Shown piece after piece: positions 4,440-64,000 of a stretch of DNA of 64,000 bases. Numbering within the stretch: the first letter of the stretch is position 1; every line of letters starts with the position of its first letter. The notes under the pieces are model-generated. The model searched no databases. It worked only from the letters and a program-made list of their open reading frames with translations, and was not told the origin of the DNA. The stretch lies in assembly GCF_963921235.1 (NCBI RefSeq), contig NC_086097.1:113152001-113216000 (forward strand), given 5' to 3'. The position numbers and the translations under genes are program-made. Source of the stretch: Mobula hypostoma (taxonomy: Eukaryota).

Positions 4440-5645
4440 AGTTAAATTGAATTTATTTCAATACATGAGGATTAACAGGTGAAACAGATTAACTCAGAGC
4501 ATGGATTCACTCTGGAGGACTGGTATGTTATAGCCATGGCTGAGAGAAGGGGAGCTCAGTGTTCCAGGATACAGATATTAAGTCATGACAGATGAGCAGG
4601 TAAGCGAGGAGGGAGTGTTGGGTAAAGCACACACAATGCTGGAGGAACTCAGCAAGTCAGGCAGCATCTATGGAGGGGAATAAACAACTCACGTTTTAGG
4701 TCTAGACCCTTCGTCAGGACTGGAAAGGCAAGGAGGCAGAAACCAGAATTAGAAGGTGGGGAGAGTGGGAGAGTTCAAGCTAGCCGGTGAGCCTCTTGAG
4801 GGGGAAGGCATGTGGGTTGGGGGAGGGGGAATGAAGTAGGAAGCTGGGAGGAAACAGAAGCCCCTTCTTCTTCAGCCCTTTACCTCTTCCACCTATCCCT
4901 TCCCAGTATCTTACTTCATCAGCCTCCCCTACTCACCCACCTACCTTTCCCCTCACCTGGCCTCCCCTATCAGCTGCCAGCGTGTACTCTGTCCCCTCAC
5001 CACCTTTTTAGTCAGGCTTCTGTCCCCTGTTCCAGTCCTGAGGAAGGGTCTCGGCCCAGAACATCAACTGTTTTCTCCCCTACATAGATGCCGCCTGACT
5101 TGCGGAGTTCCTCCAGCATTCAGTGGGTGTTGCTCTGGATTTCCAGCATCTGCAGAATATCTTGTGACTGTTGCCATTTTGATAAGAAAGAATGCAGCAG
5201 CAGCAATGCTTAGAGATGACATCCTTGGGGGCGTGTCCATTACAGACATGAATAGAATTTAGGAAGAAGAAGTGGAGGGTGGTCACTTTGGCGTGGCTGT
5301 ATTATGGATACTACCACATGAGGTGACAGGAATTTGAGGAACGGGCATGCAGAGGAATTGCTCTGTGTTGCAAGAATAACAGGGTGGTATTAATTGGAGA
5401 TATTAACTTTCCTGGCATTGACTGGGTCACCCAGACCAAGAGTGTTAAGGGCCTGGGCAGAGTAGAATTTGTGCAATGTACCCTGGAATGTTTCCTGAGC
5501 CAATTTAAAGAGGACCCTACATGGGAAAGTGCAATATTGGACCTCCTCTTGGGACATAAAGCAGGGTGCATAACAGAGTTTCCAATCATGGAGCACTTTC
5601 ACTCCAGTGACTATAAATCTATTTGTTTTAAAATTACAATGAAAA
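4440..5645 (+). mobile_element. Older CR1 LINE, ORF2 apurinic endonuclease region (5' part; continues at 10450)
   Basis: ORF 5384..5692: VLIGDINFPGIDW...DPTWESAILDLLLG...EHFHSSDYKSICFKI (APE motifs GDFN and SDH, decayed). Interrupted by the 4628-5166 insertion. Confidence 0.8.
4628..5166. mobile_element. Palindromic Penelope-like terminal-repeat insertion with two hammerhead motifs
   Basis: The left arm (ACACAATGCTGGAGGAACTCAGCAAGTCAGGCAGCATCTATG..., purine-rich) is the imperfect reverse complement of the right arm (...CATAGATGCCGCCTGACTTGCGGAGTTCCTCCAGCATT). CTGANGA cores lie near 4712-4718(-) and 5038-5044(+). Confidence 0.8.
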
Positions 5646-16659: not shown

Positions 16660-17460
16660 TTGCAATCAAACTGAATCATTAAGTTCTCTGAAGACACAAC
16701 AGTGGTTGACCTCATCAAGAACAACAATGAGACAGCGTACAAAGAGGAGGTAGAGTGGCTGGTAGAATAGTGAGAACAACACCTTGAGTTTCAATGTGGA
16801 CAAGACCAAAGAGGTGACTATGGACTTTATGAAGGTGCAGGCTGGCCACGCCTCATTACACATAAATGGTTGCTCCATGGAGAGAGTTCAGAGCACCAAG
16901 TTTCTGGGAGTACACATAATGGATGATCTCACCTGCTCCCACAACACCTCTTTAGTCAAGAAAACTCAGCAGAGTCTCCATTTCTTGAGGAGATTGAAGT
17001 GAGTGAGGCTCTCCACCCCATCACTCGAACAAGTTTTTGCAGGAGCACCTTTGAGAGTGTTCTGACCAGCTGCATCACCATCTAGTAAGGGAATAGCAAG
17101 TCATCTGACTGCAAGTCCCTATGAAGAATGCAAGGATTGCTGTGAGGATCATCAGGATCTCTCTTTCATTCATCAGAGATATTTAACAGGAGCGCTTTAT
17201 ATCAGGGCCTCCCATCTGTCCAGCAATCTCTTTAACCCTCTTCCATTAAACATGAGCTACTGTAGCATTAGGTCAAGAGCTGTTAGGATAGCAAACAGCT
17301 TTTTCCTCCAGGCCGTATATGGCTACTGAACTCCCTGCCACCACCCGGTCTCATCATGTATGAGGTGGCAGTAGCGTTAAACTGGTTACTTGTATGTTTG
17401 GTGGTATACATGTGTATGGTTGAGTGGCAGTGCACTGAACTTGAACATGAACTTGAGTTC
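16660..17460 (+). mobile_element. Rex1-clade LINE RT C-terminus and 3' end
   Basis: SFNVDKTKEVTMDF...INGCSMERVQSTKFLGVHIMDDLT...LHFLRRLK; tail TGAACTTGAACATGAACTTGA. Confidence 0.85.
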
Positions 17461-19040: not shown

Positions 19041-19335
19041 TTTCTTGACTAAAGAGGTGCTGTTGTGGGACCAGGTGAGATCGTCCGTTATGTGCAATCC
19101 CAGAAACTTGGTGCTCTGAACTCTCTCCACGGCAGCAGCCATTTATGTGCAATGAGGAGTGGTCAGCCTGCACCTTCGTGAAGTCCACAATCATCTCTTT
19201 GCTCTTGTCCACATTGAGACTCAAGTTGTTGTACTCACACCAGTCTACCAGCCACTCTACCTCCTCTCTGTATGCTGTCTCGTTGACACTGTTGATTAGA
19301 CCAACCACCGTTGTGTCATCAGAAAACTTAATGAT
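19041..19335 (-). mobile_element. Rex1-clade RT fragment
   Basis: KFSDDTTVVGLINSVNETAYREEVEWLVDWCEYNNLSLNVDKSKEMIVDF; same family as 16660-17460. Confidence 0.85.
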
Positions 19336-20902
19336 TCAAGATATGGGATCATGTGGTTAGTGGTGGGATCATATTGTAGCAGGCAGAAATTCTGAAGAAT
19401 TCACAAGAGGAGACAGGGACCCCCATTTTCTGAAAAAGCAAAACATTTCTTGGATGCCTTCGAATGGAAATGTCTAAGATGTCCAGGATGTTCTCCATAA
19501 TTTGGTATGTTACTTCCATTGAGCAGAAATGTAGTCCATGGTGGGATGCTGATTAAAAGCATTCGATCATGGTTTCTCTGCAGTCAAAAAGAAGTCTCGT
19601 ATTGTGGTGTGCTGAAGCACTGTCTGAAATGGAAGTTTAGTCATCTGGTCTCTATGTACTCAAAACAGCTTTTCACAAGTAGTGAAGCACCATAATCTGA
19701 ACGCCATCCGATCTGCCGCTAAGAAGTTGGAGCTAAGATCTCCACTGTTTCCATCATTGTGATGATGGGCCATTGACGCTCCTTGTATTCATGTTCATGC
19801 TTATAATTCAATGATATTCAATTCATGATATGGCACTTCAGAAGTAGAAATGTGTATTTTTCTGGAAAACTTTCTGTGTCATATCCATAGGATTTCTGCC
19901 AAAATCTGTTTACAATAAACTGGTAGCTGAATTACTGTCAACTGGTTATTAGTTTAATAAATGACAATAATAGGGATTCCTTGTTCAGCAGTAAAATATC
20001 TTTACTTGATTTAGAGATTACAATTATTACAATGTATCATCTGCCAGTGGAATACCCTTCCTTTTCTTTATCCTTCTATGCTTTGAGCTGAGCCATGCAT
20101 TTACTTACAACCAGTCAGGGTCTGACTGACTGAAAATAATTCATGACTCTGGTGCCTAATCAGGTTATCCTTCCCTAATGCAGTCCTCATTCACCTCCTA
20201 ACATGCCCCGGTAACTGGTAGTTCAGAGGTCTTCATTTTGAGGGAAATCCTCATAGACAATTGACACTGCTACTTCTCCTTTGTTCTGAGACAAAGTTTC
20301 ACCCTTTCCTTCCCACCTGGCTTCTGCAGCTGAAGAGCTTATCCGTGTTGATCTCCAGTGAGAGCATGCCGAAATCCACAACTGAGGCAGCTCACTGGGG
20401 TCTACAACTTCCCTGAGGGAGTATGTAGGTGTTCCTGGAAGATGTTCACTATGGTTGGTGGGGCTCTAGAAATTCTAGATCATGGTAAATCCTCATATAT
20501 TGTCTAACCAGTCCCCTGAAACTCCTCAAGGCAACATGGCAGCAAAATAGTCTGTTGTCTATTCAGATATTTCCTTTAGTCACTGATTGGCAGGACGGCC
20601 TTTACCCAACCCCACAGTCAATTCACTCGCATCACAGGCACTCCTCCTCACTGTCCCGGGGCAGGAGCTAATCATGTATATCCATCAATGGTATCAACTC
20701 CCTCCCGCCTGGAAGAAAGGTAGCTCACCTTTCAGTGGACAACTTTCTGATATAATGATAGTACCGTTTGGTCTAACCTGAAAGATCATGAAAGGGAATG
20801 GTTCTGATGATGGTTGAAGAGGTAATGGGATCTGTGGAAGTCAGAAGAATGCATTTGAGCTACCCCGTCACCGCACAAACCACTGAATCCATGATTGGGA
20901 CT

Positions 20903-25600: not shown

Positions 25601-25787
25601 GGGCCTACATTTGAGCCTGATCATATCACTTAGTAAGAAAATGTTCTTTCATAGTCTTGTATAAAGTTGTGTCTTAGGCTATATTTTTATTCATTTTTGC
25701 TTTGGCTTATGGTTTTTAGTAAATTTACTATTTAACATTGTCAATAAATTTTCATTAATTAAGATCAATTTACAACCTTCAGTTAAA

Positions 25788-27271
25788 TTAATTGCTGAAC
25801 CTCTGGCTAGGATCTTTAAGTCCTCGTTGTCCACGGGAATGGTACCAGAGGATTGGAGGGAGGTGAATGTTGTGCCCTTGTTCAGAAAAGGTAGTAGGGA
25901 TAGTCCGGGTAATTATAGACCTGTGAGCCTTACGTCTGTGGTGGGAAAGCTGTTGGAAAAGATTCTTAGAGATAGGATCTATGGGCATTTAGAGAATCAT
26001 GGTCTGATCAGGGACAGTCAGCATGGCTTTGTGAAGGGCAGATCGTGTCTAACAAGCCTGATAGAGTTCTTTGAGGAGGTGACCAGGCATATAGATGAGG
26101 GTAATGCAGTGAATGTGATCTATATGGATTTTAGTAAGGCATTTGACAAGGTTCCACATGGTAGGCTTATTCAGAAAGTCAGAAGGCATGGGATCCAGGG
26201 ATGTTTGGCCAGGTGGATTCAGAATTGGCTTGCCTGCAGAAGGCAGAGGGTCATGGCGGAAGAAGTACATTCGGATTGGAGGGCTGTGACTGGTGGTGTC
26301 CCACAAGGATCGGTTCTGGGACCTCTAATTTTCGTGATTTTTATTAATGACCTGGATGTGGGGGTAGAAGGGTGGGTTGGCAAGTTTGCATCAACACAAA
26401 GGTTGGTGGTGTTGCAGATAGTGTAGAGGATTGTCAAAGATTGCAGTGAGACATTGATAGGTTGCAGAAGTGGGTTGAGAAGTGGCAGATGGAGTTCAAC
26501 CTGGAGAAGTGTGAGGTGGTACACTTTGGAAGGACAAACTCCAAGGCAGAGTACAAAGTAAATGGCAGGATACTTGGTAGTGTGGAGGAGCAGAGGGATC
26601 TGGGGTTACATGTCCACAGATCCCTGAAAGTTGCCTCACAGTTAGATAGGATAGTTAAGAAAGCTTATGGGGTGTTAGCTTTCATAAGTTGAAGGATAGA
26701 GTTTAAGAGTCGCAAGGTAATGATGCAGCTCTATAAAACTCTGGTTAGGTCACACTTGGAGTACTGTGTCCAGTTCTGGTCACCTCACTATAGGAAGGAT
26801 GTGGAAGCATTGGAAAGGGTACAGAGGAGATTTACCAGGATGCTGCCTGGTTTAGAGAGTATGGATTATGATCAAAGATTAAAGGAGCTAGGGCTTTACT
26901 CTTTGGAGAGAAGGAGGATGAGAGGAGACATGATAGAGGTGTACAAGATATTAAGAGGAATAGATAGAGTGGATAGCAAGTGCCTCTTCCCCAGGGCACC
27001 ACTGCTCAATACAAGGGGACATGGCTTTAGGGTAGGGGGTGGGAAGTTCAAGGGGGATATTAGAGGAAGGTTTTTCACTCAGAAAGTGGTTGGTTCGTGG
27101 AATACCCTGCCTGAGTCAGTGCTGGAGATACACTAGTGAAATTTAAGAGACTACTAGACAGGTATATGGAGGAATTTAAGGTGGGGGGGTTATATGGGAG
27201 GCAGGGTTTGAGGGTCGACACAACAATGTGAGCTGAAGGGCCTGTACTGTGCTGTACTATTCTATGTTCTA
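25788..27271 (+). mobile_element. Comparatively young 5'-truncated CR1 LINE (RT + 3' UTR) inside the hAT element
   Basis: VPEDWREVNVVPLFRKG..NYRPVSLTSVVGK..QHGFVKGRSCLTSL..YMDFSKAFDKVPH..GVPQGSVLGP..FINDL. Frameshift at KFA(DD)TK plus two stops; tail CTGTACTATTCTATGTTCTA. Confidence 0.95.
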
Positions 27272-30192: not shown

Positions 30193-30412
30193 TCCCTCCC
30201 CCTCCTGTCTTCTCCTATCATTTTGGATCTCCCCCTCCCCCTCCCACTTTCAAATCTCTTACTAGCTCTTCCTTCAGTTAGTCCTGACGAAGGGTATCGG
30301 CCCAAAACTTCGACTGTACCTCTTCCTAGAGATGCTGCCTGGCCTGCTGCGTCCACCAGCAACTTTGATGTGTGCTGTTTGAATTTCCAGCATCTGCAGA
30401 ATTCCTCATGTC
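30193..30412 (+). mobile_element. PLE terminal repeat (second subfamily) with a near-intact hammerhead
   Basis: TAGTC-CTGACGA-AGGGTATCGGCCC-AAAAC-TTC-GACTG at 30279-30316; CAACCTAT is repeated on both flanks. Confidence 0.8.
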
Positions 30413-45079: not shown

Positions 45080-45700
45080 CGAGGGGTGATTAATAAGTTC
45101 GTGGCCTAGGGTAGAAGGAGTCCATTTTAGAAAACCTAGCACATTTATTTTTCAATATAGTCCCCTCCTACATTTACATACTTAGTCCAGCGGTCGTGGA
45201 GCATAGGATCTTGGACCTTCAGAAGGTGCCCACAGCAGGGGTGATTAATAAGTTTGTTGCCTGAGGTAGAAGGAGATAAGTTATACAGCTCTCGTTACAT
45301 GCATGTGCAGTTCAACTCTTTGAGTGATTATGCAGAAAGTTTGAGGTTAATAACTCTTCAGGGGTGATTGATAAGTTCATGGCCTAAGGTAGAAGGAGAT
45401 GAGTTATTAACTTCAAACTTTCTGCATAATCACTCAAAGAGTTGAACTGCATGTGCATGTAAAAAAGCTGTATAACTTATCTCCTTTTACCTTAGGCCAC
45501 AAACTTATCAATCACCCCTGCTGTGGACCATTTTCTGGAGGTCCAAAACGCTGACTTCTACAAAGAAGGGATCCATATGCTCCATGACTGCTGGACTAAG
45601 TGTGTACATGTAGGAGGGGACTATGTTAAAAACAAATGTGCTAGGTTTTCTAAAATTGACTCCTTCTACCTTAGGCCACAAACTTATCAATCACCCCTTG
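45080..45700. mobile_element. Foldback mariner-derived MITE with five TIR copies
   Basis: TA|CGAGGGGTGATTAATAAGTTCGTGGCCTAGGGTAGAAGGAG ... CTCCTTCTACCTTAGGCCACAAACTTATCAATCACCCCTTG|CA. The right arm encodes the mariner C-terminus DFYKEGIHMLHDCWTKCVHVGGDYVK. Confidence 0.9.
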
Positions 45701-52969: not shown

Positions 52970-53110
52970 TCTCCCACATTTTATGCTGGTGTCTTCCTCC
53001 TTCCTTCCTAGTCCTGAAGATGTGTCTCAGTCTGAAACATTGACTGTCTATCCAATTCCATGGATACTGCCTGACCTGCTGAGTTCCTCTGACATATTGT
53101 GTATGTTGCT
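52970..53110 (+). mobile_element. PLE terminal-repeat fragment; hammerhead core intact, stem II decayed
   Basis: AGTC-CTGAAGA-TGTGTCTCAGTCT-GAAAC-ATT-GACT at 53010-53045. Confidence 0.75.
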
Positions 53111-53296
53111 TTTTATTAAAGTCAACTATCTTTCCCAATTTTAGTTTAAACATCTTGATATTTTTTCTATTCATCTTATGAATTGTACACCCCTCATAAT
53201 TTTCCAAGTAAATATATTGACCACTGGTTCCAGATTCCTCAGCCAAATGAAATATCTCTCTTGCATCTAGTCCATCAAAGCCTTTAAGGATCTTGC

Positions 53297-53619: not shown

Positions 53620-55385
53620 TATGGCCTCTTGACATGAAACTATGTGGTAGAATGGTCCAGAGAACTAAGGTACAGGGGATCTGACATGTGTTGGCAAATT
53701 GAATCCACAGTTGGCTTGTGAAAAGAGACACAGGGTAGTGGTGGGTGCGTGTTTCTTCTGATTGGAAGTTAGAATTGTGCTGGATCTTTTGTTGTTTGTA
53801 AAGTGACTTAGATGAGCATGTAAGTGGTCTGATTATGAAGTCTGCAGACAACACTTAATTATTCAAGTCAAAGATAGTGAAAAAGATTGCCTGAGGGTAC
53901 AGTAGAAGATCAGTCAGCTGCAAAGCTGGGCAGACTAGTGGCAAATGGAATTTAGTCTAGCCAAGTTTGGTGATATACATATAAGTTAAATTCTTCTGGG
54001 GCATATAGAGCAAATGGTACAGAATGTAGAAGCAAGGTATGTAGAAGGACCTTGAAGCACAAGTCCATAGCGTGATGGTGGTATGAATAGCTAAGGTATG
54101 CTTGCCTTCATTAACTGTGTTGGGACATCACGTTCAGAGTTCAGAGTAAATTTACTATCAAAGTACATATATATCACCATATGGAACCCTAAGATTTTTT
54201 GTGGATATTCACGGTAAATCAAAGAAACATAATAGAAGCAATGAAAAAACACACAAAACAAGTTGGACAAACCACCAGTGTGCTAAGGACAACCAGCTGT
54301 CTGGCCCAGATGCTTTCCATGAGTTCACCCTGCTGAAGGGTGCTCTCATGTCAGCCTCAGAGACTGAAGTCAAAGGGTCGTTGAGGGAGTAGGGAGTTCA
54401 TGAAGCTGCCTCCATGTTTTGTCAGTCAAAGCAAGCATAAAAGGCATTGAGCTCATCTGGGTGTGAAAACTTGTCACATATATCACTTGGTTTTACTTTA
54501 GAGTAGATAACAGCACTCAAGCAGTGCCAATGCTGTCAAGCATCCTTCTGTGATTCCATTTTGATGCAGAATTGCCACTTTGCATATGAGGTGACCTTGT
54601 GGTGGTCATACCCAGACCTCTTGTATTTAATTGGTCACTAGTCCTAAACGCCACTGATCTGACCCGCAGCAGATTACATATCTCTCAGCTCATTCAGGTC
54701 TTCTAGTTGTGGAAGACTCTAAATGATTGTGTGGGGACACAATCAGGTTGCAGCTTCAAAACATTGTTTAGACTTTATTCGACTGAGTGCAGAACTGACC
54801 ACCAAACTCTAGGAAAAATATGGCAGCAATAGAGAGAGTGCAGAAGAGGTTCATTGGGTGGTCACATGGAATGGAGGGCTGTTGTTATAAGGGGAGAGTA
54901 GATAGGCTGGGTTTTCTCTCCCTGGGATGGAGGGCTGTCATTATTAGGAGAGATTAGATAGGCTGGGTTTTCTCTCCCTGGAATGGAGGGCTGTCGTTAT
55001 TAGGAGAGATTAGATAGGCTGGGTTTTCTCTCTCTGGAATAGAGGGGGCTAAGTGGAAACCTTATGGAGATCTCTAAAATCATGTGAGGCAGAGAAAATA
55101 TAGCTAGTGTGAGCCTTTTTCTGAGGGCAAGGGAGAAGAACAGGTTTATGGTGAGAAGGGAGAAATTAAATGGAATGAGAGGTAGTTTTTTTTTAACAAA
55201 GAGGTTGATGGTTTTCTAGAATGAGCTACCAGAGAGGTGGTAGAGAATGACAAAGTGACAATGTTTAAAAGGTATTTGCAGAGGCACTAAGGAATATAGG
55301 CATAGTGCAGGCATAGGTAGACATCACAGTTGCTGTGGACATGGTGAACTATGGGAGTAATTTCTTTGCTATGCAATTCTACAAA
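53620..55385 (+). mobile_element. Old CR1 RT and 3' end, interrupted by Rex-derived pieces (~54133-54745)
   Basis: AAGTCTGCAGACAACAC (K.AD.T), TGGCAAATGGAATTT (WQMEF), GAGAGAGTGCAGAAGAGGTTCA (ERVQKRF); heavily decayed. Confidence 0.7.
54867..55047 (+). repeat. 56-bp tandem triplication inside CR1
   Basis: Unit TGGAATGGAGGGCTGT..GATAGGCTGGGTTTTCTCTCCC starting at 54867, 54923 and 54979, with a partial fourth at 55035. Confidence 0.92.
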
Positions 55386-56127
55386 CATGACAATATTTCA
55401 AGTATAGTCTAACTTAAATAATTGAACTAAGATTTCTTTACCCTTTCATAATAAGGCAAAGGTTCAAAGTACTGTAGTGCTCAGGGGAGGATGGGGGGTT
55501 TGTGGTCGACAGTCATAGTAGCCAGTACTATCTAAAAATGCTTTCATGGTGGGATGTTCATCTTGATCTATTGTTACATTTTAGCTTGGGTACACAATTA
55601 TTCACTTGTGTGTTTGTGGGTGACCCTGACTGTAATAATCACCTCGCCGGTCTGTATGTGACTGAGAAGGTTCTGTCCCCGGGTCACAGTGCCTGGTCTG
55701 TTTTTGTGCTTATTGCAACAAACATGGCTGTTGAGTAAAATGGGTTTTCTTGCCTGTCATCATGGACAGAATGCTCGCCATATTTGTGTCAAGAGTAAGT
55801 AGAAATTGATGGCGAGATTAAAGAGCTACAACATCAGATGAAGCACCTTACGACTCGGCGAATAAGTCAAGGGACAGCATCCACGGGTTGGGCTCTCGAA
55901 GTTGGGACGCCATCCCGGAGAGAAGACCCGAGACCCGAGCATGGTGCCTTCCCATAATTACCTTGTCTCCCTACCATGTTTCATTTCCCAATAGGAGATC
56001 TGTCTCGGAATGAGACTTCTATGTCCTGAAATGTGCTCCTCGAACACATTTGACAAACTCTTTTCAATCCATCCCTTTTATACAATGTTAGTCCAACCGA
56101 TAACTGGAAAGTTAAAATCACCCACCA

Positions 56128-56275
56128 CCACAAGAAAATCTGCAGATGCTGGAAATTCAATCAAAAAATGCTGGTGAACGCAGCAGGTCAGGCAGCACCT
56201 ATAGGAAGAAGTATAGTCGATGTTTCGGGCCCAGTCCCTTCATCAGGACTAACTGAAAGAAGAGATAGTAAGAGA
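56128..56275 (-). mobile_element. PLE terminal repeat (same subfamily as 30193-30412) inserted in decayed CR1(-)
   Basis: CACAAGAAAATCTGCAGATGCTGGAAATTCAA..GCAGCAGGTCAGGCAGCACCTATAGGAAG..CATCAGGACTAACTGAAAGAAGAGATAGTAAGAGAT. Confidence 0.85.
56214..56251 (-). ncRNA. Minimal type I hammerhead ribozyme motif with all core nucleotides
   Basis: Minus strand UAGUC CUGAUGA A GGG ACUGGG CCC GAAA CA UC GACUA: 5-bp stem I, CUGAUGA core, 3-bp stem II, GAAA, vestigial stem III, UC cleavage site. Confidence 0.8.
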
Positions 56276-57087
56276 TCTTGCTTTTCTTTCTGTGCACCAA
56301 AGTGGATGACATCACATTTTTCTATCTACGATGTTTTGATTCACACACTCAACTTGTATATATTGCCCCTTCTCCCGTGTCAGCAAAGCCTCTTTACATT
56401 TTTTTGTACTCAAAATTCCACCTAGCTTAGTATCATAGTAAACTTCCAAATACGGCATTTGAGAAAGATTGCAAGTAGCTGGGACTGGAGTACCAATGCC
56501 AGCAGTATACCTGCCCTGCAAGTTCCCATTATAAATTCTCCAGTCTTCGTGTAAAAGTGACCCACATTTGCCCTCACTAACCCTTACCATTTTATATAGC
56601 AAACAGATTTTTTACAGTATGTCCTTATGTGTCTTGTCCTCGACTCTCATATTCCACCTTCCATTTTTTAATCAATTTTTTGATCCTCCTTCATCAAGTT
56701 CTAAAATGCTTCCAATTTTCAAGCTTAAACTATTTCTAGCGATTTATAAGCTTTTGATTTAATGCTATATATAATTTTTCTTGTCAGCTACAAATGAGTC
56801 ACTTTTCCTTTTGTATTTTTCTGTCTTAAGGGATTTTCCTTTGCCATTTCTGTGTTATTTCAAATGCTAAACACTGCCTAAGCACCTTCACACCTCTCAT
56901 TTCCTACTCTACCAAAGCTAACACTTGATTCTTTATAATTACGTTTTCCCCTACTTTTAGACTGAATCATACTTCCAAATTCAATGCAAATCCAAGCATG
57001 TTTCTTCAATTATTATCATTACTGTACCTTTCATATTTGTTAACAGAACAATTTTGTAGTTCCTCTTCTTTCATATGGTTTTATATA

Positions 57088-58284
57088 CACTCAGTGGCGG
57101 CTTTATTAGGTACCTCCAGTACATTATAAAGTGGCCACTGAGCGTATGCTTGTGGTCTTCTGATCCTGTAGCCCATCCACTTTAAGGTTCAATGTATTGT
57201 GCATTCAAAGATGCTCTTCTGCACACCAGTGTTGTAACACGTGGTTATTTGAGTTACTGTTGCCTTCCTGTCAGCTTGAACCAGTCTGGATTTTCTCTTT
57301 TGACCGCTCTCATTAACAAGTGATTTGCCACTCACTGTATGTTTCTTTTTTACCACCGCACCATTCTCTGTAAACTTTCTAGAGACTGTTGTGTGTGAAA
57401 ATCTAAGGGGATCAGCATTTTCTGAGATACTCGAACCTCCAGTACCTTATAAAGTGGCCACTGAGTGTATGTTCATGGCTTTCTGCTGCTGTAGCCCACC
57501 ACTTCAAGTTTTGACATGTGTATTCAGAGATGCTCTTCTGCACACCACTGTTTTTAAGATTAAAGTCTGTGACGAGCCTTATGGCCCATCAGGCCAGTGC
57601 TTATGCCGGTTTCCGTGACGTGAAGCAACTGAGAGTACGAGACTCTCCCCCCGCCCCACCCCCCCGGATAGGACACCAGTCTATCGTGAGGTTAACCCCC
57701 AGCATTTTTACCGGTACCCATTCTCAGCTGGGTAGACTGAAGCATTGTGTGGTTAAGTGCCTTGCTCAAGGATACACACGCTGCCCCGGCCGAGGCTTGA
57801 ACCCATGGGTTCGCTAGTCCAATGCCCTAACCACTTGGCCACGTGCCACACACACATCACTGTTGTAACACATCGTTATTTGAGTTACTGTCACCCTCCT
57901 GTCAGCTTGAACCAACCTGGTCATTTTCCACTGACTTCTCTTATTAACAAATTTTTTTTCCGCCACAGAACTACCACTTACTGGATTTTTTTTTCCTTTT
58001 GTTTTTGCACCATTCTCTGTAAACTCTGAAGACTGTGTTGTGCGTGGAAATTCCAGGACATCAGCAGTTTCTGAGATACTCAAACCACCCCACCTGGCAC
58101 CAACAAGCATTCCACAGTCAAAGTCACTTAGATCACATTTTTTCGCATTCTAATGTTTGGTCTGAACAATAACTGGGCCTCTTGATCATGTCTGCATGCT
58201 TTTATGCATTGAGTTGCTGCCACATGACTGATCTTCATTAACAAGCAGATGTACAGGTGTAACTAATAAAGTGCCCACTAAGGA
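57088..58284 (-). mobile_element. Non-autonomous Tc1 derivative with an internal tandem duplication
   Basis: TA|CACTCAGTGGC..TTTATTAGGTAC at left; inverted copies ending at 57144, 57467 and ~58284. Minus ORF MLVGARWGGLSISETADVLEFPRTT..RLVQADRRVTVTQIT is a Tc1 DNA-binding domain; no DDE domain. Confidence 0.85.
57553..57852 (-). mobile_element. tRNA-derived SINE with CORE-like and V-like central parts
   Basis: Minus strand: A-box TGGCCAAGTGG, B-box GGTTCAAGCC, CCTTGAGCAAGGCACTTAACC..CAGTCTACCCAGCTGAGAATGGG. TSD CACACCACTGTT(57541-52)/CACATCACTGTT(57853-64). Confidence 0.85.
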
Positions 58285-60012: not shown

Positions 60013-60347
60013 ATATTTGTATCTAATCAGACCTACGTACATACATAGGTGACAAAATCTAAGTAATTGTTCCAAACATTGGGATCACAAATTTCTCTTC
60101 ATTCAGCTTTTTATATTTCATTTACATGAACTTCCATAAACCATTTAATAAATTTTAGCAAAAAAGATGAAAATATATAAAATTGGTGACAACGTTTTAA
60201 CAATGCTTATAATGTAGAAGTGAGAGTAAAGATAAGGGACACATTCGTTTTGGCATGATGCAACTATTGAACTCTTCCAATTCACTATATTTAAAATAAT
60301 TTAAATTAAGGTATGAAGGTTCCGTCATCAAAGCTTAATGAAAAAAA

Positions 60348-60445
60348 TCACACACACAAAATGTTGGAGGAACTCAGCAGGTCAGGCAACATCTGTGGAA
60401 ATGAATAATCAGCCAACATTTTGGGCCAAGACCCTTCATCAGGAC
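60348..60445 (-). mobile_element. PLE terminal-repeat fragment with a decayed hammerhead
   Basis: Minus strand GTC-CTGATGA-AGGGTCTTGGCCC-AAAATGTTGGC. Confidence 0.8.
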
Positions 60446-60504
60446 AAAAAAAAATTAGATGTTTTAAAAGTAAAGCTGATGGGAACATACACTTGCAAAG
60501 GTTA

Positions 60505-62146: not shown

Positions 62147-62500
62147 AAAAAAAAAAGAAGAAGGAAGTTGCAGACTTCTTCTCTTCGGATCAAGAAGACA
62201 GCGGTAAGAGGCTAAGGTTTTCCAGCAACAAGACATTTTATTTCTTGGAGTAGGAGAGAGGACAGACTGCACAGGCGCATGACGTCAGCCAGTTGAGTGC
62301 GAACAGTTTAAAAAGAAAACCGCCATATCCAGCGGGCAGCGTCGGAGCGGGCTGCGGAGTGAAAGGGTGCAGAGTGAAAGGGCTTTGGCTCAACGGGCTT
62401 CGGCGGAGACGGGAAGAGGCTTCCTGCGACCGTTGAGTCTCATAGCAATGGAGTAAGTTACAGTTTTTTGCTATTTAGTACAAACAGTAGCATTAGAGGT

Positions 62501-63358
62501 ATGCATCTAGGATTAGTGTTGTGCTTGGAGTGCCAGATGTGGGGACCCTGGGAGACTCCCAGCCTCCCCAAGGATTACATCTGCACCAGGTGCACTGAGA
62601 TGAGGCTCCTGAAGGACCGTGTTAAGGAGCTGGAGATGGAAATTGATGACCTTTGGCTAATTAGGGAAAGTGAGGAGGTGATAGATACTACCTATAGAGA
62701 GGTAGTGGATAGCACCCCTGTGACAGTCCCCCTCAGAAATCGATACATCGTTTTGGATACTGTTGAAGAGGCAGACCTGACAGAGGAGGACCACAGTGAA
62801 TGAGACTCTGGCATTCTGCCCAGTGCTGAAATCAAGAGAGCAAGAAGAAATGCGGTAGTTATAGGGGATTCCATCATAAGGGGGACGGACAAGAGGTTCT
62901 GCAAGCCAGACAAGGATACTTGGATGGTGTGTTGCCTCCCTGGTGCCAAGGTACGGGATGTCTCAGATCGAGTCCAGAGTATTCTGAGGAGAGAGGGCGT
63001 GCAGCTGGAAGTTTTGGTACATGTTGGTACCAATGACATAGACAGAAAAAGAGAGGAGGTCCTGAAGAAAGATTACTGGGAGCTAGGAAGAAAATTGAAA
63101 AGCCGGACCTCCAGAGTAATAATATCAGGATTGCTGCCTGAGCTGCATGCTGATGATGGGAAGAATAGCAGAATTAAGCAGATGAATGTGTGGCTAAGTA
63201 ACTGGTGCAGGGGGGAGGGCTTCAAATTCTTGAATCATTGGAATCTATTTTGGGGAAGGTATGACATATACAAAAAAGATGGATTACAGCTGAACTCAAA
63301 AGGTACTAATATCCTGGCGGGATTGTTTAATATAGCTGTTAGGGAGGGTTTAAACTAA
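62501..63358 (+). pseudogene. CR1 ORF1: zinc finger/leucine zipper + SGNH esterase-like domain
   Basis: CLEC..ICTRC..LLKDRVKELEMEIDDL; stop at 62801-03; then VVIGDSIIRG, VCCLPGAKV, VHVGTND, DGLQLN (DxxH His lost). Confidence 0.88.
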
Positions 63359-63459
63359 GTTGGCAAGGAGAAGGAAACCAAGGTGCTAGGGTCGAAGAAG
63401 AGGAGAATAGAAATAAGTCAAAAATACTGTGCAGCAAAGATGGCAAGAAGGACAGGCCG

Positions 63460-64000
63460 GTGAATATACAGGATAATTTGCTGCAAAATAGAAATATAGC
63501 AAAATCGGCAACAGATACTGATCTAAATATACTGTACTTAAATGCACGCAGCATTAGGAATAAAGTGGATGACCTTGCTGCAAAGCTGCAGGTTAAAAGA
63601 TATGACATTATGGCCATCACCAAGTCATGGCTAAATGATGGATGTGATTGGGAGCTGAATACCAAGGATACACAATGTATAGGAAAGATAGGAAGGTAGG
63701 TAAAGGGGGTGGCGTGGCCCTGATGGTAAGTAACGATATCAAGTCAATAGAAAGAAGGGACATAGGATCAGAAGAGGTAGAATCCTTATGGGTAGAATTA
63801 AGAAATGGCAAGGGTAAAAAGACACTAATAGCAGCTATATACAGGCCTCCAAACAGCAGCCGGGATGTGGACTACAAGTTGCAGCTGGGAATAGAAAAAG
63901 CGTGTCAGAAGGAAAATGTCAAGATAATTATGGGGGATTTTAATATGAAAGTGGATTGGGAAAGTCAAGAAGGTAATGGATCTCAGGAGAGGGAGTTTGT
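63460..64000 (+). pseudogene. CR1 ORF2 apurinic endonuclease N-terminus
   Basis: LNILYLNARSIRNKVDDL..AITKSWL (conserved E replaced by K), frameshift near 63660, then GYTMYRKDR..GGGVAL..ESLWVEL..IYRPP..IIMGDFN. Confidence 0.9.

Follow-up and report, generated by a model that had tools for sequence, protein, structure and literature searches.

A decayed, probably inactive minimal hammerhead within the pseudo-LTR of a Neptune-type Penelope-like element that is very abundant in Mobula hypostoma

Results

The motif and its surroundings

The window, a stretch of 64,000 nucleotides of Mobula hypostoma DNA (contig NC_086097.1), carries on its minus strand a 38-nt minimal hammerhead motif of type I, set in the remnant of a Penelope-like element (PLE) that borders on non-PLE DNA (Table 1). 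The minus-strand letters from 56251 to 56214 (UAGUC CUGAUGA A GGG ACUGGG CCC GAAA CA UC GACUA) are exactly those given by a first-pass annotation of the window, and the cut that it predicted between 56219 and 56218 agrees with hammerhead numbering, in which C17 falls on 56219; the position is deduced from the sequence only. The core (C3 U4 G5 A6 N7 G8 A9, G12 A13 A14, A15.1, U16.1 and H17) is complete, the bulged A is present and the G10.1-C11.1 pair is kept (G56238-C56227), three points that speak against inactivity. Stem I was rightly called perfect, with five Watson-Crick pairs out of five, and together with the 3 bp of stem II it gives the motif the stems of a type I hammerhead. The same word, when applied to stem II, fits the three pairs that are left but not the family form, which has four; a U-G pair has been lost through a U-to-A change at 56235. 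At positions 15.1 to 16.1, where the family has the palindrome ACGU that would form a dimeric helix III, the window copy has ACAU, with two pairs out of four. The A at 16.2 is not a loop letter: it is the partner of C15.2 and adjoins the cut site.

The fold of the 38-mer alone is unremarkable (z of -1.56; 14 of 200 shuffles were equally stable), and an Rfam scan of the whole window at E<=10 gave 11 matches, among them no ribozyme and no hammerhead model. Rfam hammerhead models expect a helix III. The reality of the motif rests on its family: it occupies a fixed place in intact PLEs and the window copy is collinear with their 3′ ends, which bears out the first-pass reading of a type I minimal hammerhead within the terminal repeat of a PLE.

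Table 1. Features of the motif, its host remnant and related copies in the window (hammerhead numbering as in PMC4209133)
Feature	Position	Strand	Basis or remarks
Minimal type I hammerhead motif	56214..56251	-	sequence and family alignments
Stem I	56251-56247 with 56218-56214	-	sequence
C3-A9	56246-56240	-	sequence
Bulged A, unpaired between A9 and 10.1	56239	-	sequence
Stem II	56238-56236 with 56229-56227	-	sequence
G12-A14	56226-56224	-	sequence
A15.1	56223	-	
C15.2	56222	-	
A16.2	56221	-	family letter G
U16.1	56220	-	
C17	56219	-	
Predicted cleavage site, after C17	56218..56219	-	sequence position and hammerhead numbering
Pyrimidine tract just upstream of motif	56252..56266	-	predicted alternative hairpin with catalytic core; MFE folds
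5′-truncated 3′ end of Neptune-type PLE, 144 nt	56133..56276	-	architecture from full-length elements
Non-PLE flank, 184 bp, old LINE endonuclease fragment	55949..56132	-	common to contig C2 locus at 145.31 Mb
Nearest same-strand copy, 4.1 kb away	60328..60486	-	G12 to A, AUGU; no intact dimer partner
Sole other window copy with all core letters	52970..53131	+	ACAU; stem II broken
Copy of the same subfamily as 56214..56251	30240..30399	+	G12 to A, G16.2 to U; core broken
Older copy with ACGU at 4691-94	4597..4762	-	G12 to A, C17 to G

A profile search found 10 related copies in the window (9 with a single query, 12 with a looser profile). The core is intact in two of the ten, and none combines it with ACGU. 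The copy at 56214..56251 is the best preserved of the ten, so that its description as the best candidate here holds, for the window only. The ACGU reported at 4691-94 is indeed present in that copy, a member of family D7, although the copy has lost G12 and C17.

The host element

The 144 nt of PLE sequence consist of the last 25 nt of the 3′ UTR, the hammerhead, a spacer and a “tail” of about 35 nt. They are approximately 81% identical to the pseudo-LTRs (pLTRs) of two full-length elements (L082 and L085) and 86-90% identical to the nearest dispersed copies; the majority of genomic copies are 5′-truncated 3′ ends of the same sort. In longer genomic copies, the C-terminus of a GIY-YIG endonuclease is encoded upstream of the motif. 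A protein search of the genome yielded 135 scored matches from 234,227 candidates, and 14 of the longest loci were examined. Five of the scored matches have an open frame of 1043 aa. Four of these (L081, L082, L083 and L085) show the full-length pLTR-ORF-pLTR structure, with one motif about 80 nt before the frame and a second in the 3′ repeat about 3.5 kb downstream, while the fifth (L084) is truncated at the 5′ motif. The five frames are separated by 29-75 differences in 3,132 nt, and the autonomous subfamily is therefore young.

Pfam finds RVT_1 (E 6e-5) and GIY-YIG (E 1e-3 to 2e-3) in the right order on the 1043-aa protein, both below the curated cut-offs; fragments of 290 aa and 252 aa gave no Pfam match, and the full protein gave none in PDB or NCBIfam. 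Between the two domains lies the linker CKRNKCYTC, which has the CX4CX2C form described as a mark of Neptune or Nematis PLEs and thereby fits the Zn-finger-like pattern CX2-5CxxC of the Neptune clade (PMC8557442). We assign the element to the Neptune type by this motif, which Nematis shares. Copies of the element stop at either of two 3′ ends, about 35 nt from each other, and include partial tandem pLTRs, 5′-truncated forms and inverted partners; the two 3′ ends, the truncation and the inverted partners are standard traits of PLEs. Assembled RNA contigs from three runs, whose type was guessed, cover the PLE along its length. At the 56214..56251 locus the same contigs contain essentially the repeat only, no listed piece bridges the unique junction, and ends, strand and level are not readable from them.

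Origin of the window copy

Positions 55949-56276 of the window are 92% identical, without gaps, to a 328-bp stretch of contig C2 (G000:C2:145308612-145308939, loci L002/L096), which is made up of PLE sequence (144 nt) and flank (184 nt). The LINE fragment in this flank we take to be CR1. The two copies share the stem II U-to-A change and a tail deletion found in no other locus compared. The C2 copy extends further on both sides than the 328-bp piece, and a paralog 67 kb away from it (L097) has the flank and no PLE; it still keeps the old LINE sequence, about 415 bp long, that the PLE replaced at C2. The C2 locus is therefore the likely donor of the window copy and its flank. This sister copy retains ACGU; hence the change to ACAU postdates the duplication, in keeping with the first-pass proposal that ACGU is ancestral and ACAU a product of CpG decay.

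One could envision that the piece was made by the PLE enzyme in an event of 3′ transduction, with reverse transcription starting 184 nt beyond the C2 tail and stopping 25 nt upstream of the hammerhead. The piece is truncated at its 5′ side within the PLE and continues into flank of the donor, which itself extends further in both directions and has a PLE-free paralog nearby; capture of host DNA by PLEs is known (PMC3846280). However, no target-site duplication and no empty site came to light for the 328-bp piece, whose two flanks are unrelated repeats; PLE reverse transcription is described as starting at two internal sites (PMC11167929); and only one derived copy turned up among 40 scored of 680 candidates. 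We put transduction forward tentatively, and as somewhat doubtful. Insertion by DNA-templated repair is the alternative. Downstream of the duplicated piece, at 55546-55957, lies a repeat that adjoins a gag-like frame in a relative (L122) and is presumably the end of an LTR retroelement.

Abundance and decay of inserted copies

In the 3.48-Gb genome, the C11.1/ACGU form has 6,478 exact matches when the loop is held to its usual sequence. Core and ACGU together have 59,673 when the loop may vary and 11.1 may be either C or U, and the ACAU defect of the window copy has 2,853; reversed control patterns gave 0. Since so many copies keep core and ACGU, and thousands share ACAU, the copy at 56214..56251 is, judged by its letters, mediocre genome-wide. 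Forty evenly chosen 10-kb stretches (400 kb) contained 62 copies; scaled up to the genome, this gives about 540,000; 15 of the 62 have an intact core, 11 have ACGU as well and 8 have both stems in addition. Decay was followed in 36 of the 62 copies, a set limited to those that match at 24 to 35 of the 38 letters and do not start inside the motif. Survival was 0.61 for G12, 0.64 for G16.2 and 0.50 for C17, as compared to 0.61 and 0.64 for the loop CpG. By this measure catalytic CpG positions are lost as fast as loop CpGs, and inserted copies decay neutrally.

Selection on the fold

Covariation of stems I and II across genomic copies, which the first-pass annotation had named as a check, is evident across motif families but weak within the family. 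In a within-family alignment of 11 hand-picked rows, 92.9% of cells are paired versus 14-41% in slid controls; only two pairs show double-sided changes, a number matched by 49 of 500 shuffles. A search pattern that excluded the second stem II pair of the main family matched 154 times, versus 13 times for its control. A-U double changes at that pair are frequent among these matches; since both changes are transitions, they were not counted as covariation. The 30 loci inspected comprised 13 main-family mutants and 17 members of five other motif families. The latter keep the core and ACGU while having wholly different stem II sequences of 6-8 bp (L170-L179, L183-L196), mostly still pairing, and A, U or C as the bulge. 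Stem I, which lay outside the search pattern, forms 2.9 of 4 pairs within copies versus 1.7 across families; this signal is carried by families B and C, which use different letters, while D and E pair poorly. One of the 17 loci (L183) has a GIY-YIG of its own, a divergent GIY-YIG-like sequence upstream (E 1e-7). The changes across families point to long selection on a fold that would be cleavage-competent.

5′ ends of young copies and the G10.1-U11.1 subfamily

If it is cleaved RNA that is copied, the cut site should be where young copies begin. Their 5′ ends were counted with patterns demanding two non-family letters before a given base. The cut site had 61 ends, the control 5 nt downstream 13, and the purine-matched control 8 nt upstream 56; moreover, 22 of 30 inspected cut-site matches were fold-back junctions. 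The apparent excess (61 vs 13) was rejected on these two grounds, and the 5′ ends of young copies thus display no clear excess at the cut site that could be taken as a cleavage footprint. Ends pile up instead at the front edge of stem I (362). Unrelated, non-PLE flank was found upstream in 8/30 inspected cases at the cut site and 4/30 at the control 8 nt upstream, and in 2/10 at the control 5 nt downstream and 5/10 at the front edge; the remaining inspected cases were mostly fold-back junctions. Within the motif such fold-backs account for many of the 5′ junctions, with short microhomologies at the join (L237-L246, L197-L226, L247-L276).

In the youngest autonomous subfamily the pair at 10.1-11.1 is G-U: it is found in 21 of 22 repeats from the long-ORF loci (the L081-L085 set) and, by hand count, in 79 of the first 100 core-plus-ACGU matches listed. 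G10.1-C11.1 is highly conserved in PLE minimal hammerheads (PMC4209133). An alternative register, with the bulged A paired to U11.1, is possible; in either register the most successful lineage departs, as far as its letters tell, from the G10.1-C11.1 consensus.

Predicted folding of the window copy

ViennaRNA predicts a dimer helix energy of +3.4 kcal/mol for ACAU/ACAU, with its two of four pairs, versus -1.7 kcal/mol for ACGU/ACGU, which sides with the earlier suggestion that ACAU weakens dimerisation. The double-hammerhead fold is predicted at -5.8 for the window copy and at -16.7 and -11.5 for intact copies. In a heterodimer with an ACGU copy, the window copy serving as the enzyme half, A15.1 and C15.2 are predicted to pair correctly and three pairs out of four to form. 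As a monomer, the RNA is predicted to adopt a rod in which G5-G8 pair with 15.2-17, with a probability of 0.70 for the window copy and 0.98 for intact copies. This rod matches the AUC/CUGAU trap modelled in PMC1636495, which also shows AUC to be a good, fast triplet when 16.2 is properly paired. Inclusion of the upstream 25 nt leaves stem I of the window copy with a predicted pair probability of <=0.04; in the family 3′ copy, the corresponding value is 0.0 with the upstream pyrimidine tract and about 0.4 without it. ViennaRNA takes no account of tertiary contacts or of assistance by the protein, and for the intact family, too, it ranks the dimer above the monomers; the energies therefore serve to compare copies and do not prove inactivity.

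Discussion

We interpret the copy at 56214..56251 as a decayed, likely inactive minimal hammerhead in the pLTR of a very abundant Neptune-type PLE, with a probability of about 85%. The first-pass annotation had singled it out as a candidate for a still-active self-cleaving RNA; the C15.2-A16.2 mismatch, the shortened stem II, the lack of an intact partner in cis and the predicted locked fold argue against this. In an intact element, by analogy with published PLE hammerheads, ACGU/ACGU pairing would join the two motifs into a double hammerhead, probably aided by the protein of the element, and the cut would fall after GUC. The master element, and not the inserted copies, would then be under selection for this. 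The solo copy in the window would form inactive rods or, with two of four dimer pairs and no intact partner nearby, a poor dimer, and so would not be expected to self-cleave.

A working ribozyme that cleaves a host transcript, either in dimeric form or assisted by the PLE protein, is nonetheless conceivable, given the intact core, the 5-bp stem I and the retained G10.1-C11.1 pair. Some natural hammerheads tolerate weak stems (PMC3088659), and protein-assisted cleavage has a precedent in the anole PLE hammerhead, which is reported to cut only with the protein (PMC11167929). In the Schistosoma PLE motif, single units gave no cleavage and dimers cut weakly (PMC4209133). Against activity of the window copy stand the mismatch right beside the cut site, the loss in stem II, the broken state of the nearest same-strand copy and the upstream tract, which is predicted to lock the fold. 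What separates the window copy from its sister locus, moreover, is ordinary decay (11/144 in the PLE part, 14/184 in the flank). We consider this alternative very unlikely. Even less probable is that the window copy is a non-LTR retrozyme, a tandem non-autonomous element propagating through circular RNA. Retrozymes likewise carry a type I hammerhead that goes back to PLEs, having arisen from PLE pLTRs, and one chondrichthyan is known to have them, yet they need at least two consecutive tandem units (bioRxiv 10.64898/2026.07.22.740005). The window has no tandem array of head-to-tail units, and the copy is a solo, truncated 3′ remnant collinear with the ends of autonomous PLEs; on these grounds the retrozyme reading was rejected. 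Chance resemblance to a hammerhead, which the silent Rfam scan and the ordinary fold (z -1.56) might have suggested, has a negligible likelihood: it is refuted by the 59,673 matches against 0 in the control, by the fixed place in PLE repeats and by the stem changes across families, and the bulged nucleotide and palindrome are as published (PMC4209133).

A more serious question is what the motif does in active elements. It could be kept for another role, such as RNA start, folding or protein binding, or be a passenger, with cleavage rare even there. This would fit the G10.1-U11.1 pair of the youngest subfamily and the distribution of 5′ ends, which are about as many at the cut site as at the upstream control (61 vs 56; non-PLE flank in 8/30 vs 4/30) and most numerous at the front edge; in addition, hammerhead mutants are reported to leave insertion in vitro unchanged (PMC11167929). 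However, five other families keep the core and ACGU with a different, mostly pairing stem II, families B and C pair stem I with different letters, and cleaved RNAs may not be the ones that are copied. We view a role other than cleavage as a possibility to be taken seriously, if not as the one we favor. It is tempting to speculate further that the family hammerhead is a position-dependent switch and not a steady cutter: the pyrimidine tract would lock the 3′ copy, RNA would start at the front edge, only the 5′ copy would open with protein help, and weak or delayed cleavage would be selected, the window copy being the outcome of inter-contig 3′ transduction by the PLE enzyme. Taken as a whole this scheme is unlikely; were it true, the replacement of G-C by G-U in the most successful young subfamily would represent selection for weak or delayed cleavage.

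Motifs of this kind have been known since 2014 (PMC4209133), and by its sequence the family described here is a further member. As in the PLE minimal hammerheads covered by that work, including fish Xena, Poseidon and Neptune, the motif is of type I with a 5-bp stem I, an unpaired nucleotide between A9 and 10.1 and a palindromic 15-16 junction without helix III; it lies in both pLTRs, and its copies are mostly solo. The differences concern stem II (7-8 bp in Schistosoma, 4 bp in the present family, 3 bp in the window copy), the G10.1-U11.1 pair of our youngest subfamily and the missing palindrome of the window copy. Core-intact copies number about 60,000 here against about 9,000 in Xenopus and about 4,000 in the coelacanth (PMC4209133), figures obtained by different search methods. 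The Poseidon element PAc of Anolis carolinensis (PMC11167929) has the same pLTR-ORF-pLTR layout, the same two 3′ ends about 35 nt apart and a hammerhead likewise placed at the pLTR/ORF junction, and it too gives no sign of cut-site ends. Its motif overlaps the start codon, whereas ours lies upstream of the frame; the present family also has the Neptune-type Cys linker. EN+ PLEs of the Neptune clade (PMC8557442) resemble it in the single ORF with RT, CX4CX2C linker and C-terminal GIY-YIG, as well as in partial tandems, inverted 5′ copies and tails. As for the possible transduction, PLE capture in Adineta vaga (PMC3846280) likewise moved non-PLE DNA with a pLTR; there, however, pLTRs enclose the cargo and a target-site duplication surrounds both, whereas here the flank follows one pLTR end on its 3′ side and no duplication is visible. 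Among the 20 papers listed of 1,282 found outside subscription journals and Repbase, none dealt with hammerheads in shark or ray PLEs; the alignments of PMC4209133 may include close relatives.

The flagged copy in itself matters little: of roughly half a million remnants it is one, and apparently dead. The family, on the other hand, is well suited to asking what PLE hammerheads do. Its full-length elements are nearly identical, its core-intact motifs number about 60,000, its older and youngest subfamilies differ naturally at 10.1-11.1 (G-C versus G-U), and its insertions are numerous enough for base-by-base mapping of 5′ ends.

Other features of the window

Fragments of LINEs lie at 25665-27136, with an RVT_1 frame (E 1e-26), and at 62378-63699, with an esterase-like, GDSL-like ORF1 frame (E 1e-7). 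Nested inverted repeats at 45081-45698 have arms of 61-71 nt that are 93-94% complementary and resemble stacked ends of small DNA transposons. Longer inverted arms, at 16672-16946 and 19061-19338, are 84-92% complementary and enclose about 2.1 kb, and a 56-bp unit is repeated three times in tandem at 54867-55046. A hairpin at 57083-57149 gave a sub-threshold match to mir-9256 (40.5 bits against a cut-off of 80); it lies at the end of a common repeat and is probably a transposon terminus.
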